Shown: positions 1 through 6,000 of the stretch, one piece after another
How positions within the stretch are numbered: position 1 is the stretch's first letter
How the letters are laid out: the number at the start of each line of letters is the position of its first letter
Assembly (NCBI GenBank): GCA_046538485.1
Contig: JBKHIT010000049.1
Coordinates: forward strand, 1 to 38,676
Direction of reading: 5' to 3'
DNA from: Candidatus Brocadiia bacterium
Lineage (GTDB): Bacteria; Planctomycetota; Brocadiia; SM23-32
Length of the DNA: 38,676 nt
Made by a program: the position numbers

Positions 1-3000
1 CCTCTTCAGTACTACGTGCCCTTCCGACTCCCTCCGCGGCCTGACCATGCCCTCATGGGCCATCAGTTCCAGCATCCCGCACTTGGGATGCCTTCACCAC
101 GCAGGGGCTCCCGTGTTGCTACAGGACTCCTCTGATCACATGCCCTCGCCACTACCCCGGTGGAGCCGATGGCTACAGGTCGCTCTCCTCACCATCGCCG
201 GCGGCTTTCCCCGAATTTCAGGCGGGTCAGCCTCCACATTACCCTTTTCGAGGCCTGCTCGGCGTTCACTCGCGTTGGGCCTGCGATCTCGCTGAATCAC
301 CTATGCGATCCTTTTTGCATCGAAGTGCTTCCGTCGTTTCGTTACCTCCACAAACGGCTCCGATTGCTACCGGTTGGAGCAACAGCTACCGGGCAGGTAT
401 TATCTCCTGCTGAAGTCCTGTGCCTTTCCACGGCACACTGAAATATGCGGGCTAACCTCGGTTCAATATCATTCTGAGCTGGTCGCCCCTTCTTTAACCG
501 TACTCTCCGCTGGCTGCTCGCCTTTCGGAATACTCACCCGACCGCTAAGCCTATCCATAATTATTCTGTCGCCTGTCATTATCACTCCCCCTTTGGACAG
601 TTTTGCCGGAGTCCCTATCAGAGTATAAAGGTCCCTTTTCCCGTCGTAATGCAGCTTCTCGCTCCTCGCCTCGATATCTTTTTTTTCATAACTGACCTTT
701 ACACCTCTCGTAGCAACGGCCCGAGATAACTCGGACTCCCCACCTTTACCTTTCTCCGAAAAAAACAACTTCAGAAGGTCAGCCTTAAGAGTTCTTTCCG
801 CATCTCTCACGACCACCTTTTCTTTTGCGATAACCTGGCTCAGCGCCCCCCCAGAGCCGAAAATCGCTTCGGCGGAACTGCTCTGCATAGACCAGGACAT
901 TTCCCCTGCCGACTCAAAATTAATACCGCCTTTGCAGCTGATATGTCGCAGTTCCCGTTTTTCATTAAAATCCATCGATAGCTCGCTGCATTGCAACTGA
1001 GTACCGCCGAACCGGGCGTCAACTTTTCCCTCAAACTTTCCGCCACTCCCGGCAAAATCTCCCATCATTGACTTTTCCCAGGCGATTGTATCGTTTGCTC
1101 CATTTTCGCGGAACAGTTTAAGGATTCCGGCACCCTCTGCAAAGAGCGTATCCTCAAGAGGTTTTCCAATTAATTGTTCGGCGTTTAGTTTCCATCGCCG
1201 CACGCTCTTCGTAACACCATTTCCTTTCTCGCTTTTATCGCCATTTTCAGTTTCTTTTTTTTGTTTCCTCCCCTCTTCCTCTTCACGCACACCCTGTACA
1301 TCCAGTTCGGCATCTCCCGTTGCCAAAATTTTCGCAACTGTCTGCTCATCCCCGAAATCTACCTGGATCCTTAAAGCTGACAATATACGCCCGGGACGAT
1401 GGGCACGGACCTTACCGGAGAACACCGCCACAGGAGGAGAGTTTCTCTGGTATTTCATGCTTTTCGTCCACTCCACACGCAGAAGCTGAGTCGGTTCGGC
1501 TCTTTCATCCGTGTCAGTGCTTTCGGGGAATGCGAGCGAACCAGCAGTTGGACATGTGAAAGAATTTGTTCTCGGGTCGAACACCACTGTATTTGCTGTC
1601 AATCTCTGCGATCCAAAAGCTACGGAAACTGGTTTTTCCTTTTTGCCCTCAAGCCGCACTACCCCGTCGGTTGCTCTCCAGGTAGCGACATCACACGTAA
1701 ACGACCGCTTTTCCTGTTCTACCTGCTGGTCAATGCGCACATCTTCTTCGGCTTTAATTTCTTGAATCGACTTCTGTGCCCCTCCAAACGTCAGGTGCAA
1801 TTTCTGGCAATTGATACCGCTACCGTTCTGTCGCGCCCACACATCCCGCTCAAAATGCGCCACTTCTTTCCCCGCATCATATGTCATTATTTTCTTCCAG
1901 GTCACAGTCACAGGTTTGTCAGGTTTAAGCGGCGTGGCAGAGTTATCATCCCCCTCACCGTTTTCGCCTTCCTCGCTGCCATGCTTTTTGTCGTCTTTTG
2001 GCGTTTTCGGAGCCCAGTTCAGTTGCCCGGCACCCTGCACCTGGAAACGGCTTCTCAAACGGTAGAAGCTCAGCTGCTTTCCTATGATGCGAAAGTTCGG
2101 CGTTCTGAGTTCCCCGGGTTCACCAGTTAACGTACATTCCTGGTAAACGTTTTCCCACACCATCTTGTCCCCCACAGCCGTTTGCCCCGGGAACTCAAAA
2201 ACGACATCCCCATCTGCCACGATTCGCGTGACCTGAAATTTATCTTTTCCATCGCTTTTATCGAGTATGATTGTCAGATGGTTCGTTTTAAGCCTCTTTT
2301 CGCTCGCATCAACATTCACTTTTTCATGGAATTCAACCGTGTGCGTATTGTGATCGTAGGTCATTGCGCCTTCGCCCTCAATGACGACCCTTCGTTCGGC
2401 ATCAGGTTGCTCATCCTCAGACACGGGACTGCTGTCGGCCAAAAAGTCTTCGGACACATTGAGCAGTTCTGCTCTCGCATCGTCAAGTATTTCGACCTTC
2501 TGACTCGTCAGGTCGGCACGCATGCCCAGGCCGGTGATTTTCATAGCGACTTTCTTATTACCCTTTGGTCCCACACGGAACCGGCGCATTGTAATCGGGG
2601 CCTCAGATTTGACCAGACGGTCGCGGGTATTAAAGACGACACGGTCACCCACAACCTCAAAATCAGGTCCAGCAAAACGTACAGAATCGAACAGGCTTAC
2701 CTTGTTTTTCCCCTCATCAAACTCAGCGCGTTTGGCCGTCAGCCGTGCCTCGCCTGCTCCAACATCAACGCTTTCGCCCCCTGACATCTTTTGCAGCATA
2801 CAGACCACAACAGGCGAGGCGATTTTATAAATATTGTCCTTAAAATATTTCGCCTCTTCCCCTTTAATCCGGGTTTCGACTTCATTGCTGTCTTCTCCCC
2901 GGATGTCCCTGTGAAAAGATTCCATTGTCAGCCGAACTTCGTCGTCACTGTCTTTATTCTGATCGCCTTCAGTTTCAGACACAGCGTTTTCCGTCTTGGG

Positions 3001-6000
3001 GCCTTTCTCTTCCCGCGTATTATTGCCGTCCTTTACGTCCTCTCCCGGCATTAACACCGACCCCCCTACGATCGAAAAATAGACCATATAGCCCAGGCCT
3101 GTGATCGTCAGCAGAGTCAGAAAAGACTTAAATACACGCTTGAGATTTTTATGTTCCGCAACCACTTTTGCTCATTATCTCCTACTGATTATCATGGTCG
3201 CTCTTATACACTTTAAGTTTTTGTTCAATCTCGTCTCTTGACGGCAGCGATGGTTCCGCGCCCTCGGTCTCCGTCGCGATTGCGGCCGCACAAACTGCCA
3301 TTTCAGCCGCCTCGAGCAAATCTTTGCCTTCGGCAAGACCGACGGCCAGAACCCCCGTAAAACAGTCGCCGGCTCCGACGGTATCAACCGGATCTGCTTC
3401 GGCGGCTTCAAGGGCAAACTCTTTTTCTGGGGTCCGGGCCAAAACTCCCTCGGATCCCAGAGTAATCAGCACGGCCCCGGGACCGAACTGAAGGAGTTTC
3501 GAAGCCGCATCTTCGGCACCAGCTGTTCCATCCAATCCGCACACACTGCGGGCTTCGCCCAGGTTAGGCGTAACTATATCGACGTTTTCAAGAAGACTCA
3601 TCGAAAGCCCTCCCCTGGGAATCGGAGCCGGATCGAGGATCGTCATTAGCCCGGCCTCTTGTGCTTCCTTCAACGCACATGCGACCGTTTCTATTGGCAG
3701 TTCCAGCTGGGTCAACATAACATCTGTATTTTCAAACACAGCACGGTTTGCAACAATTTCATCCGGAGACAACGTCCAGTTAGCTCCCGGCGCCACACTT
3801 ATTATATTTTCGCCGTTTTCATCCACCATAATCAAGGCTATACCTGTGGCATTCTCTTCACTTACACGGATACTATCCGTATTTATCCCCTCTTTTTGCA
3901 GCCGTTCGATTATCTCGTCTCCAAAAAGATCCTTGCCTACTTTCCCGATCATCGATACTCTGGCTCCGGCGCGAGCAGCAGAAACGGCTTGATTCGCGCC
4001 TTTGCCGCCTCCCGCCGTCACAAATTGTCCTCCACTGATTGTCTCCCCCACGTTTGGCAAACGGTCCGAAATAACGGTCATGTCAGTGTTAGCGCTTCCA
4101 ACAACAAGAATACCTGGCTCTGCCATAATGTATTTTTCCCGTGAACGGTACTTATTTTTTGTTACCCTTTTTGTTTTTCTTTTTTCCGCCCCCGGTTATC
4201 AAACGTACGGGAGCAGTAACCAGATCAAATATCGTCCGCACGGGTTTCCCGAGCGCTTTAAATGATTGGACCTTAAATCTGGGATCGCGGATGCTTCCGC
4301 TGACGTAGATTTTTACCAGTTCCCTCTCCACCGGACGCAGAATGGTCTTCACTGCAGTTCCGATAATTGGAAGGCCTCCTTCCGGTAAAGTGGCGGCAAC
4401 CATATGCAGGTCGATCTCCCCTTTTTCAAAGCCAATATCACCCCGCCCCGTAAGTTCAGTAGAGCCCCCCCACAACCGCAACGCTTTCACTTGCAGCCGC
4501 TGTCTATTGAAAGAGTAAGCCATTTCTGCTTTATCGAACCGGCCCCAGGAGCCCGGTTTGGAAAGATGGAGTATATCAACCAGTCCACCAAAAATCGGGC
4601 CCGTCCAGATTCGACCTTCGGATAGTTCAACGCTTCCATGGCCTTTCAGGTAACTTTCTTCACCGGTTTGGCCTTTCATTTCGACAAGTCCCGATAACCG
4701 CCCTGCAATATCATATTCCTCGTCAGAAAAGCGGTCTGCCAGGACCTTCATATCCACACGCCGAAACTCACCGGCTCCCTCATACTTTATAGCACCACTT
4801 TCATCGACCGCCCTTGCCCGGCCGGAGGCGTCAAACCGGCCTTCTCCAATCACACCCGTTAGAAAGGGTATCATAACCAGCTGCTCGGTTAACACCACAC
4901 GGCCATTAATTGAGGCGAGTTGAAGCGGCATGTGAACCCACCGCGCCGACGCGTCTTTCATCTGAACATCCATGAAATACGAAATTTTGTTCTCGCGATT
5001 GCCATCGTAATTAATATTTCCCGTCACTCCTACGACACCTTTTGGCCTGAGCGTTTTCCACAACCTCTTCCCCAAGTCTGGGACACTCTCAACAAGCTCC
5101 TGGCTGAGAGCAACATTCGCTACAGACACCTCGAATGCACCCGTTTCCCGACTGACATCGAAGGAACCTTTCAGGCTGAAGTAACCTTTCTTGGCCGCTG
5201 GAGATGTCCCGATCCCCGTTGATTCCACTTTGCCCGCGAGAGACACAATTTGAACTTTTCCGCCGTCGATATGAAGGGTCCCTGCCAGATCCTCAACCGG
5301 AAAAGGCAGGAAATCGGGCGCGGCCGTCGCATTATGTATTTTGACTGAGCCCGTCGGCTGCAACCCTGTCCCTGATTCATCGGGTTCTAAAATGAACTCC
5401 GCGTCCACAGCACAATCCGGCTTAAGAATGTCCCAAAACTCGCTGGACTCTCCCAAAATCCATGTTATGTGCTCGGAGCGGGGCCGGAAATTTTGCAACG
5501 CAACTTTCAGTTTTACAGGCCTTCCCTTCGCATCGAATTTACCGTCCAGCTTGACACGCGCATTTACCCGCTGTTGCGGCACAATTCCCTTGACCCTTTC
5601 CAGTCTGATGCCTTCCTCCTCAACGACTGCAACTCCGGTTACTTTTTCGATGGGAAACGGCAAACTCTCGCCTTCCACCGAAACAGTGTCAAGTTGAGCC
5701 CTGGCCGAAAAACGCGTTTTCCCGTCCTTGTGATCTTCCAGCATCAGCTGAAAATCCACTTTACCGGTGGGGTGGAGCCGCCGCCACACCTCTGGCCCGG
5801 CTGAAGGAATCAAACTCACGCTTTTCTCGGTCAACGGCATGCCACGTGATTGTACTTCTACCGAGACATGCTCCGAAGGGTGATTGTAAAAACCGTTGAC
5901 CTTCACAGGGATAAGCTTTGTTCCACCGGACTCATCACCGATATCGTGCGGGTTAATAGTCCCATGCAGATCGGTACACGACACGCGTGTGCCCGCTATG

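Follow-up and report, generated by a model that had tools for sequence, protein, structure and literature searches.

The DNA analysed here (the window) is a stretch of 38,676 nt, positions 1 to 38,676 of contig JBKHIT010000049.1, from a Candidatus Brocadiia bacterium of the order SM23-32. Close to its left end, on the minus strand, an ORF at 469-3165 with a GGAG upstream of its GTG start encodes a chain of 898 aa, in which a membrane anchor is followed by an LptC module and four LptA-like units (Table 1).

Table 1. The fused Lpt chain and its parts, the neighbouring gene, and the other lpt genes of the genome (positions without a prefix lie in the window; C23, C32 and C67 are other contigs).
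Feature	Position	Strand	Basis or remark
Whole gene: membrane-anchored LptC-(LptA-like)x4 chain, 898 aa	469..3165	-	GTG start, TAA stop; Pfam, NCBIfam, AlphaFold2
Predicted transmembrane helix (signal anchor), residues 2-33	3067..3162	-	hydrophobic window; AF2 helix 2-33
Acidic low-confidence tether, helix to first jellyroll, residues 34-78	2932..3066	-	pLDDT <50 at 33-74
LptC-type beta-jellyroll, residues 79-235	2461..2931	-	Pfam LptC 67-232; TIGR04409; VIA-align superposition
LptA-like unit 1, residues 259-384, 9 strands	2014..2391	-	PF03968 at 268-365; unit HMM 253-388
LptA-like unit 2, residues 419-546, 12 strands, complete LptA equivalent	1528..1911	-	motif VTWKKIMTY at 421; VIA-align
LptA-like unit 3, residues 562-684	1114..1482	-	motif VEWTKSMKY at 564; unit HMM 555-688, profile positions 4-135
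LptA-like unit 4, residues 692-871, 12 strands, ~1.4 unit lengths	553..1092	-	motif IAWEKSMMG at 694; PF03968, TIGR03002
Short C-terminal tail, residues 872-898, and stop codon	469..552	-	pLDDT drops at end; one short strand 887-890
AsmA/YhdP/TamB-like protein, 907 aa, candidate phospholipid bridge	4152..6875	-	conserved context, not part of the Lpt chain
LptB	C32:7132-7830		318.6 bits
LptF/G	C32:18135-19217 and C67:129928-131553		profile search
LptD	C23, 958-aa frame		PF04453, only match
LptE	C67:50398-50772		profile search

The Lpt bridge is driven by the LptB2FG ABC transporter, and its LptC component is usually a single-domain protein of about 190 aa. The 898-aa chain matches only two Pfam families, LptC (PF06835; 2.6e-10, 40.7 bits against a cut-off of 21, residues 67-232) and LptD_N (PF03968; 5.1e-26, 91.6 bits against 20.4, two stretches, the best at 777-874), and it also exceeds the curated cut-offs of the NCBIfam profiles for LptC (TIGR04409; 46.6 bits against 38) and LptA (TIGR03002; 83.5 bits against 71.7, three stretches). 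As in LptC, a single N-terminal transmembrane helix, seen in the hydrophobicity profile and the AlphaFold2 model, leads into a beta-jellyroll identified by superposition, but four further jellyroll units follow; these have the LptA fold by superposition on 2r19_A and 8onu or, for units 1 and 4, by profile-profile comparison only, and are internal to a membrane-anchored chain where LptA carries a signal peptide of its own and is free and soluble in the periplasm. The chain shares with LptD the LptA-type jellyroll of that protein's N-terminal domain, but LptD has a signal peptide and a C-terminal beta-barrel, whereas the chain has a membrane anchor and no barrel; PF04453 matches the C23 gene only, and an LptD identity was rejected.

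An AlphaFold2 model built with 43 sequences (pLDDT 82.9, pTM 0.66) consists of the N-terminal helix and 51 strands, which fall into jellyroll units, plus one 8-residue helix (631-638) inside a low-confidence insertion. The pLDDT stays below 50 at 33-74, 128-136, 391-407 and 629-653 and dips at about 241-260 and 551-560. Residues 15-33 form the sole strongly hydrophobic 19-residue window of the chain. The tether behind the helix varies from 19 to 78 aa among 43 homologues (identity to the query 0.10), and while model residues 5-227 align to residues 2-175 of Vibrio cholerae LptC in LptB2FGC (6mjp_C), the rmsd is 20.7 Å. Taken by itself, the LptC module (76-241) superposes closely on LptC structures in VIA-align (6mit_C, Z 13.9, rmsd 1.9 Å, 143 residues aligned; 3my2, Z 12.1). 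The best whole-chain Foldseek matches are LptD chains (8h1s at 1.5e-9, then 4q35 and 5iv9).

Among the LptA-like units, the second superposes best: residues 408-540 align with E. coli LptA (2r19_A) at Z 16.2 and rmsd 1.8 Å over 121 residues and with LptH (4uu4) at Z 15.3, and its PDB profile match is LptA 8onu (1.5e-5). A weaker superposition on 8onu was found for residues 552-716 (Z 11.7, rmsd 4.5 Å, 129 aligned); unit 3 is broken by a charged, low-confidence insertion of 34 aa at 624-657, which is 20-60 aa long in homologues. Unit 4 includes the best LptA-family match of the chain (PF03968 at 777-874, TIGR03002 at 776-884), and unit HMM matches in its region lie at 686-768 and 775-883. The repeats are homologous by hhalign: blocks 255-392, 412-550, 556-650 and 655-765 are related at 97-99.4 % (unit 1 against unit 2, 99.4 %, E 5e-22), and block 766-892 at 98.9-99.2 % to the first two (99.2 % to unit 1) and 87-88 % to the other two. 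A motif around an invariant Trp, [VIL]xWxxxMx[YFWG], begins three of the four units, at 421, 564 and 694, and none of 2000 shuffled sequences held three occurrences. Unit HMM matches add up to 4.1 unit lengths, and the DSSP strand count of the chain is about 4.25 times that of the 12-strand unit matching LptA in superposition, which falls short of five full-size jellyrolls. Across the 43 homologues, units 1 and 2 are near-constant in length (medians 126 and 128 aa, ranges 125-148 and 123-151) and the linkers are variable (12-45 and 20-60 aa) and poorly conserved; in the 898-aa chain itself the links are acidic and 15-34 residues long, and the C-terminal tail is 7-27 aa in homologues. An earlier note had described an 898-residue chain of one N-terminal helix followed by strands, with LptC at the front and LptA-type modules behind it, the three motif copies and LptD chains as its closest structural relatives, and all of this was reproduced; the count of LptC plus four LptA-like units is supported by Pfam, NCBIfam, hhalign, the AlphaFold2 model and superposition.

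Elsewhere in the genome, profile searches recovered the inventory of LptB, LptF/G, LptD and LptE given in that note, together with the lipid A genes LpxC, WaaA and LpxK, and LptD seems to bear a further jellyroll-like module at its N terminus. The lptB gene is not adjacent to the 898-aa gene, so that an lptCAB operon is lacking. Separate LptA and LptC genes were sought with permissive thresholds (E<=10 and E<=1), using general and lineage-specific profiles. PF03968 gave six matches at E<=10, one in the 958-aa LptD frame and five in the 898-aa frame (at about aa 132-181, 268-365, 427-508, 578-640 and 777-874), PF06835 matched the 898-aa frame alone, and lineage-specific HMMs run over 32,852 open frames of at least 70 aa matched only the 898-aa ORF and LptD, in line with the earlier statement that neither gene exists separately in this genome. 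That note had also raised the concern that, with the genome 88 % complete, a small lptA might lie on a missing piece. This is answered by the relatives, because neither gene was detected separately in any of the order's 32 genomes or in five closed ones from the class: the PF03968 matches listed for the order (E<=0.01) all lay in the long gene, in fragments of it at contig ends, in frames of LptD size or in one 1865-aa frame, and in the closed genomes (E<=1) all 18 matches fell within a fused frame of 657-668 aa (13) or an LptD frame of 921-953 aa (5).

The fused gene has a wide distribution. A match is present in every one of the 32 genomes of the order, mostly as open frames of 858-1066 aa, as had been noted before, and across the class the fused gene occurs in 126 of 132 genomes. 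Outside the order, the usual form in the class is one of about 660 aa, made of LptC and three LptA units, which was previously known from two genomes. It has the same architecture of anchor, LptC and LptD_N repeats, as does the 664-aa protein of Candidatus Kuenenia stuttgartiensis (WP_230405793.1), which NCBI names "LPS export ABC transporter periplasmic protein LptC". The protein Atlas holds LptC plus LptD_N clusters from Acidobacteriota and Aminicenantota, and other relatives have two to five units when counted by Pfam stretches. The order's form gives five unit HMM matches covering 3.0-4.2 unit lengths (3.4-4.2 except in P0048 and P0052); the 660-aa forms span about 2.7-2.8 unit lengths with two or three LptD_N stretches (each of the five closed genomes has three) and are about 240 aa shorter, the difference lying at the C-terminal side. 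The order's own trait is roughly one extra LptA unit; the fusion itself is shared with the class, with Kuenenia and, by the Atlas, with Acidobacteriota and Aminicenantota. The natural LptC-LptA fusion is a real, widespread and undescribed variant of the Lpt bridge, and a literature search found no paper describing natural fusions of this kind.

It is likely that the 898-aa gene specifies, in a single polypeptide, that part of the Lpt bridge which is anchored in the inner membrane and spans the periplasm. The N-terminal helix would sit in LptB2FG, like the helix of LptC, and by way of the flexible tether the LptC jellyroll would receive LPS from LptF/G. The four LptA-like jellyrolls, stacked head to tail, would then form one continuous hydrophobic groove, with LPS handed on to the periplasmic domain of LptD/E, so that the chain would do the work of E. 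coli LptC and the LptA oligomer together. Since LptC and about four LptA-like units are joined in one chain, the gene probably fixes how long the periplasmic part of the bridge is by setting the number of units, which is four in the order and three across most of the class. If each unit contributes about 35 Å, as in published E. coli models, the span would be about 26-33 nm between membrane centres. The chain might, as the earlier note proposed, be long enough to reach LptD across a wide periplasm. Covalent linkage is compatible with transport, because an engineered E. coli LptC-LptA fusion has been reported to form a stable complex with LptB2FG and to deliver LPS to LptD in vitro (PMC12065857). 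Points against the one-chain bridge are the missing lptCAB operon, the acidic and poorly conserved links, the pTM of only 0.66 and a strand count below that of five full-size units.

A bolder proposal, put forward tentatively and at somewhat less than even odds, is that the chain is an encoded ruler, in which the number of units and the extra LptD module together fix how far apart the two membranes lie where LPS is transported, at about 30 nm. Seven or eight jellyrolls would make up a single covalent track for LPS, without assembly or disassembly of LptA, and, if true, unit number should track envelope width across lineages. An enlarged periplasm has been reported for planctomycete classes other than that of the host (PMC5394234).

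A less ambitious role is also conceivable, with the chain serving as the LptC of the system while only some modules lie in the transport path and the others act as spacers, an LPS reservoir or docking sites for other envelope proteins, so that it would not be a rigid bridge or a ruler. Linkers of 15-34 aa, low in both confidence and conservation, would suit flexibly tethered beads, as would the pTM of 0.66 and the broken third unit. However, all four units retain the LptA profile at near-constant lengths in the 43 homologues, three begin with the shared motif on an invariant Trp, and neither this genome, the 32 of the order nor the five closed ones offers another LptA to complete the bridge, which makes this role unlikely. 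More improbable still is that the chain carries something other than LPS, such as surface lipoproteins or a different glycolipid, which has been proposed for Lpt homologues in Borrelia and Bacteroides: Lpt-like machines have been reported to move lipoproteins (bioRxiv 10.1101/2022.12.21.521298; 10.64898/2026.10.02.756314), but this genome carries LpxC, LpxK and WaaA, the full LptB/F/G/D/E set and a single LptC/LptA-type gene, so that LPS, if exported by Lpt, must use the 898-aa chain. That the chain is merely a long LptC, with a diverged separate LptA completing the bridge, is very improbable, for although the genome is 88.3 % complete and jellyrolls diverge fast (Pfam LptD_N is found in only one of six long frames of distant Planctomycetota), permissive searches here, with both general and lineage-specific profiles, brought up no further candidate, and the same is true of the order's 32 genomes (E<=0.01) and the five closed ones (E<=1).

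Compared with LptC (YrbK) and LptA (YhbN) of E. coli, the one-chain bridge has the same folds, the same order from N to C terminus (helix, LptC, LptA) and the same partner genes, but the two proteins of about 190 aa each are replaced by one chain, acidic loops join the units and the lptCAB operon is missing. Unit number is fixed by the gene here and by oligomerisation in E. coli, where according to a preprint the copy number of LptA is not definitively established, may reach five and is still unsettled (bioRxiv 10.1101/2023.04.28.538765). The engineered fusion (PMC12065857) shares the covalent LptC-LptA linkage, but it was built artificially and has a single LptA unit, whereas the chain described here is natural, has four and is found order-wide.

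In E. coli, both the number of LptA copies in the bridge and its stable or transient nature are still debated. The natural chain is a defined object, suited to purification together with LptB2FG and LptDE so that a whole bridge can be imaged by cryo-EM; unit counts can be set against envelope widths from cryo-ET, and the three- and four-unit lineages provide a natural length series. The public name, plain "LptC", hides the fused LptA function, and the fused chain corrects inventories in which planctomycetes are counted as having no LptA; one study calls the planctomycete Lpt system "largely reduced" (PMC8871954).

AsmA-like proteins such as YhdP and TamB resemble the chain in being single membrane-anchored polypeptides with a long beta-rich groove across the periplasm, but they belong to a different fold family, and the ABC transporter LptB2FG would power the chain of LptC/LptA jellyrolls found here. 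The 907-aa neighbour lies upstream of the Lpt chain in 16 of 19 loci of the order; it has a weak match to the Pfam YhdP C-terminal profile (6.3e-4), and against AsmA/YhdP/TamB clusters of the Atlas its features score is 0.98 and its structural TM 0.45-0.63.

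The gene for the LptC/LptA-type chain is preceded by a GGAG motif a few bases 5' of its GTG start, and residues 15-33 of its product are the sole strongly hydrophobic 19-residue window. The chain matches Pfam LptC (2.6e-10, residues 67-232) and LptD_N (5.1e-26 and 91.6 bits; two stretches, 777-874 being the better match), and scores over the cut-offs of the NCBIfam equivalogs for LptA (TIGR03002: 83.5 bits, cut-off 71.7, three stretches) and LptC (TIGR04409: 46.6 bits, cut-off 38). Promoters and terminators were also looked for in positions 1-9700 of the window, and nothing exceeding chance was found. 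An artefact of assembly or annotation was rejected, as the order SM23-32 has uninterrupted full-length frames in most of its 32 genomes and the broken ones lie at contig ends. The observation that a single frame holds both LptC and LptA-type domains, made in the earlier note, was borne out in every point checked.

The structure of the chain was predicted from an alignment of 43 full-length relatives (mean pLDDT 82.9, pTM 0.66). In it, residues 2-33 form a helix, after which come 51 strands; the sole other helix (631-638, 8 residues) lies inside a low-confidence insertion, and pLDDT falls below 50 at residues 33-74, 128-136, 391-407 and 629-653. A whole-chain Foldseek search placed LptD chains on top (8h1s at 1.5e-9, 4q35, 5iv9) with a TM of only ~0.18, and the same list also holds unrelated long beta proteins such as teneurins, Rhs and DDB1; it is uninformative, and the parts of the predicted chain are identified instead by domain-level superposition. 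When the model was superposed in this way, residues 76-241 matched LptC of the LptB2FGC complex (6mit_C; Z 13.9, rmsd 1.9 Å, 143 residues), 408-540 matched E. coli LptA (2r19_A; Z 16.2, rmsd 1.8 Å, 121 residues) and 552-716 matched LptA 8onu (Z 11.7, rmsd 4.5 Å, 129 residues). The last of these places the low-confidence residues 624-657 inside a unit, as an insertion and not as a linker between units. Residues 5-227 could be aligned with Vibrio cholerae LptC from its residue 2 (6mjp_C), but with an rmsd of 20.7 Å. Alignments of residues 542-898 to OspA and radial-spoke proteins (VIA-align, Z 7-11.5) were taken as generic beta-sheet likeness.

Profile-profile comparison of blocks of the same alignment shows the repeats of the chain to be homologous to one another, with 255-392 matching 412-550 at 99.4 % and 766-892 at 99.2 %, and 412-550 matching both 556-650 and 655-765 at 99.3 %. 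An HMM built from block 412-550 (the unit HMM) found 253-388, 412-550, 555-688, 686-768 (a half unit) and 775-883 in the chain, a total of 4.1 unit lengths. Taken together, the superpositions, the profile-profile repeats and the unit HMM lead to the reading of the chain given in the table. If the 12-strand unit superposing on LptA is taken as the measure, the DSSP strands of the chain amount to ~4.25 such units; the previous estimate of about five jellyrolls was fair, if slightly generous. Three of the units open with the motif [VIL]xWxxxMx[YFWG], at positions 421, 564 and 694; three matches were seen in none of 2000 shuffles of the sequence, and all three Trp residues are invariant among the 43 relatives. 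Over these sequences the module lengths are almost constant, and the links between modules are acidic, poorly conserved and of variable length.

Coordinates of the chain gene, of the predicted parts of its product and of the AsmA-like gene
Feature	Position	Strand	Remarks
Whole gene	469..3165	-	open frame, 898 codons, GTG start
Anchor	residues 2-33
Tether	residues 34-78
LptC module	residues 79-235
LptA-like units, four	residues 259-384, 419-546, 562-684, 692-871		last unit long
C-terminal end	after residue 871		short tail
AsmA/YhdP/TamB-like protein, 907 aa	window 4152-6875	-	weak Pfam match; Atlas features and structure

The assembly as a whole (5.19 Mb, 143 contigs, 88.3 % complete) was searched in six frames for further LptA or LptC genes. 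Of six matches to PF03968 at E<=10, five were inside the chain frame and one was in a 958-aa frame on contig C23; PF06835 gave none apart from the chain frame. Lineage HMMs for the LptC block and three units matched only the chain ORF among 32,852 frames of at least 70 aa in this genome; those of the two LptD N-terminal modules found only LptD, plus one chance-level match (E 0.13). No lptA adjoins lptB, which is flanked by a sulfatase gene and a SecDF-like gene. Across the order (32 genomes, 11 of them with a completeness of 90 % or more and a contamination of 5 % or less), the PF03968 matches listed at E<=0.01 were the chain gene, its contig-end fragments, LptD-size frames (~900-945 aa, which match the start of the profile only) and one 1865-aa frame, and no frame of free-LptA size was among them. 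In five closed genomes of the class Brocadiia (99-100 % complete, a single contig each), all 18 matches at E<=1 fell in a fused frame of 657-668 aa (13) or in an LptD frame of 921-953 aa (5). This largely removes the concern that a small lptA might lie on the missing part of the 88 % complete genome.

The remainder of the pathway is in place. LptB (318.6 bits, exceeding its cut-off), two LptF/G genes, LptD and LptE are present, and the inventory compiled earlier, with no free LptA and no second LptC, was reproduced by profile searches. LpxC, WaaA and LpxK are present as well. Judging from this gene content, the organism very probably makes LPS, the export of which would have to go via the single LptC/LptA-type gene. 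The LpxC match (contig C7, 25628-26476, minus strand) lies within a 446-aa open frame, compared with a profile of 268 positions. One LptF/G paralogue (a 565-aa frame on contig C67, 129874-131571) appears from its sequence to have its periplasmic domain separated from the last, C-terminal membrane segments by an insertion of ~200 residues, which is rich in Lys, Glu and Arg and probably helical.

The chain gene was found in 32 of 32 genomes of the order, mostly as uninterrupted frames of 858-1066 aa, as had been claimed. Class-wide, a match is present in 126 of 132 genomes, and the form of about 660 aa previously noted in two sampled genomes proved to be the usual one outside the order, with frames of 650-680 aa that align to chain residues ~50-620. 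A homologue search returned only two relatives; one run exhaustively over 1.84 billion representatives (E<=0.001) was needed and gave just 154 proteins, ~45 of them full-length at 840-950 aa. Nearly all family members have an N-terminal hydrophobic segment. The unit HMM has five matches in the order's form, covering 3.0-4.2 unit lengths (3.4-4.2 except in two sequences), and three in the ~660-aa forms, covering ~2.7-2.8; the order SM23-32 adds roughly one more unit. Among distant members, Pfam detects LptC and two to five LptD_N stretches in nine of ten. One cluster is that of Candidatus Kuenenia stuttgartiensis (664 aa), named "LPS export ABC transporter periplasmic protein LptC" at NCBI, and the protein Atlas holds LptC+LptD_N clusters of 631-800 aa, most commonly from Acidobacteriota and Aminicenantota (a lead, not an alignment). 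With the ~660-aa forms of the class, these indicate that the LptC-LptA fusion is old and widespread.

An LptC-(LptA)n architecture is not claimed for the phylum as a whole. PF06835 matches 87 of 301 genomes in the Planctomycetota sample, and in 69 the match exceeds the cut-off. Most of the frames concerned are of 500-1772 aa; they run from stop to stop and do not give protein length, and the lineage HMM is too narrow for these distant frames. Pfam LptD_N was detected, weakly, in one of six long frames examined. A 1629-aa stop-to-stop frame (genome G327, contig C10, locus 5500-12500) has a weak LptC match plus a TatA/B/E match at 1340-1380, showing that, in these genomes, a single long open frame can cover more than one gene. 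Of the frames with LptC listed for the sample, a single one has the ordinary LptC size (178 aa; genome G159, contig C55, locus 72500-79000). It follows SIS-CBS (kdsD-like) and HAD (kdsC-like) genes, an arrangement shared with E. coli, but is itself followed by ApbE instead of lptA.

In E. coli, the LptC helix sits in LptB2FG, and LPS moves from LptF via the jellyroll of LptC and then LptA to the N-terminal jellyroll of LptD, neighbouring jellyrolls being joined through their edge strands. The chain has these same parts, and in the same order, and the most economical reading is that it would be a bridge of the E. coli type in which the junctions have been made covalent. An engineered LptC-LptA fusion is functional in vitro, according to the available text of PMC12065857. 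In published models of the E. coli system, in which the number of LptA runs from one to five, the centre-to-centre membrane distances are 185, 220, 260, 290 and 325 Å, or ~35 Å per LptA (bioRxiv 10.1101/2023.04.28.538765). By this measure we infer that the chain, with 3.3-4.1 LptA equivalents, would span about 26-29 nm between membrane centres. The planctomycete periplasm "can be greatly enlarged", a statement that in the available part of PMC5394234 concerns Planctopirus, Gemmata and Rhodopirellula, not this class.

The span may be greater still if LptD truly has a second module. Mature LptD (contig C23, 68990-71794) has ~480 residues ahead of the Pfam barrel match, a region kept in 30 of 32 order genomes. 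A model of its 484 pre-barrel residues (pLDDT 80.7, pTM 0.37) opens with a beta module (15-123), after which come a helix (131-140) and the canonical jellyroll (164-297), which superposes on LptA 2r19_A (Z 10.8, rmsd 3.3 Å, 107 residues), followed by barrel strands. In a profile-profile comparison (hhalign), the first module matched the canonical LptD_N jellyroll at 94.6 % (E 7e-8, 56 columns), and a search with a single sequence of it gave weak matches in the LptD-size frames of 25 genomes out of 87 in the class. The LptD of this order thus seems to carry an extra N-terminal jellyroll-like module. A complex prediction for chain 655-898 and the N-terminal 320 residues of mature LptD, run without controls, scored 0.29 (mark 0.32); the LptD part included the extra module and may have offered the wrong edge.

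The individual parts and the Lpt pathway are textbook knowledge, and public databases already show LptC combined with LptD_N, labelled simply as LptC. The literature searched, the scope of which leaves out most subscription journals, yielded no account of LptC-LptA fusions in nature or of their variable unit number, and the available portions of PMC8871954 and PMC10542722 do not mention an LptC-LptA fusion. For work on Lpt the interest of the chain is a real one, since it fixes a stoichiometry left unsettled in E. coli.

The chain gene closes a series of genes on one strand, with short gaps between them; before it come those for YggS, ThiC, the 907-aa protein and ribokinase. The AsmA/YhdP/TamB-like protein is a candidate phospholipid bridge, and 16 of 19 loci of the order have its gene upstream of that for the chain (the other three have short flanks), making the candidate and the LPS bridge conserved neighbours; ribokinase lies between them in nine of the 19. 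Elsewhere in the window, a response-regulator gene (34297-34716) precedes that of an 807-aa protein (34700-37123, plus strand) combining the histidine kinase domains HisKA and HATPase_c with Pyr_redox_2, Pyr_redox_dim and rhodanese, and a 1875-aa protein (21631-27258, minus strand) has N-terminal zinc ribbons and HEAT repeats.
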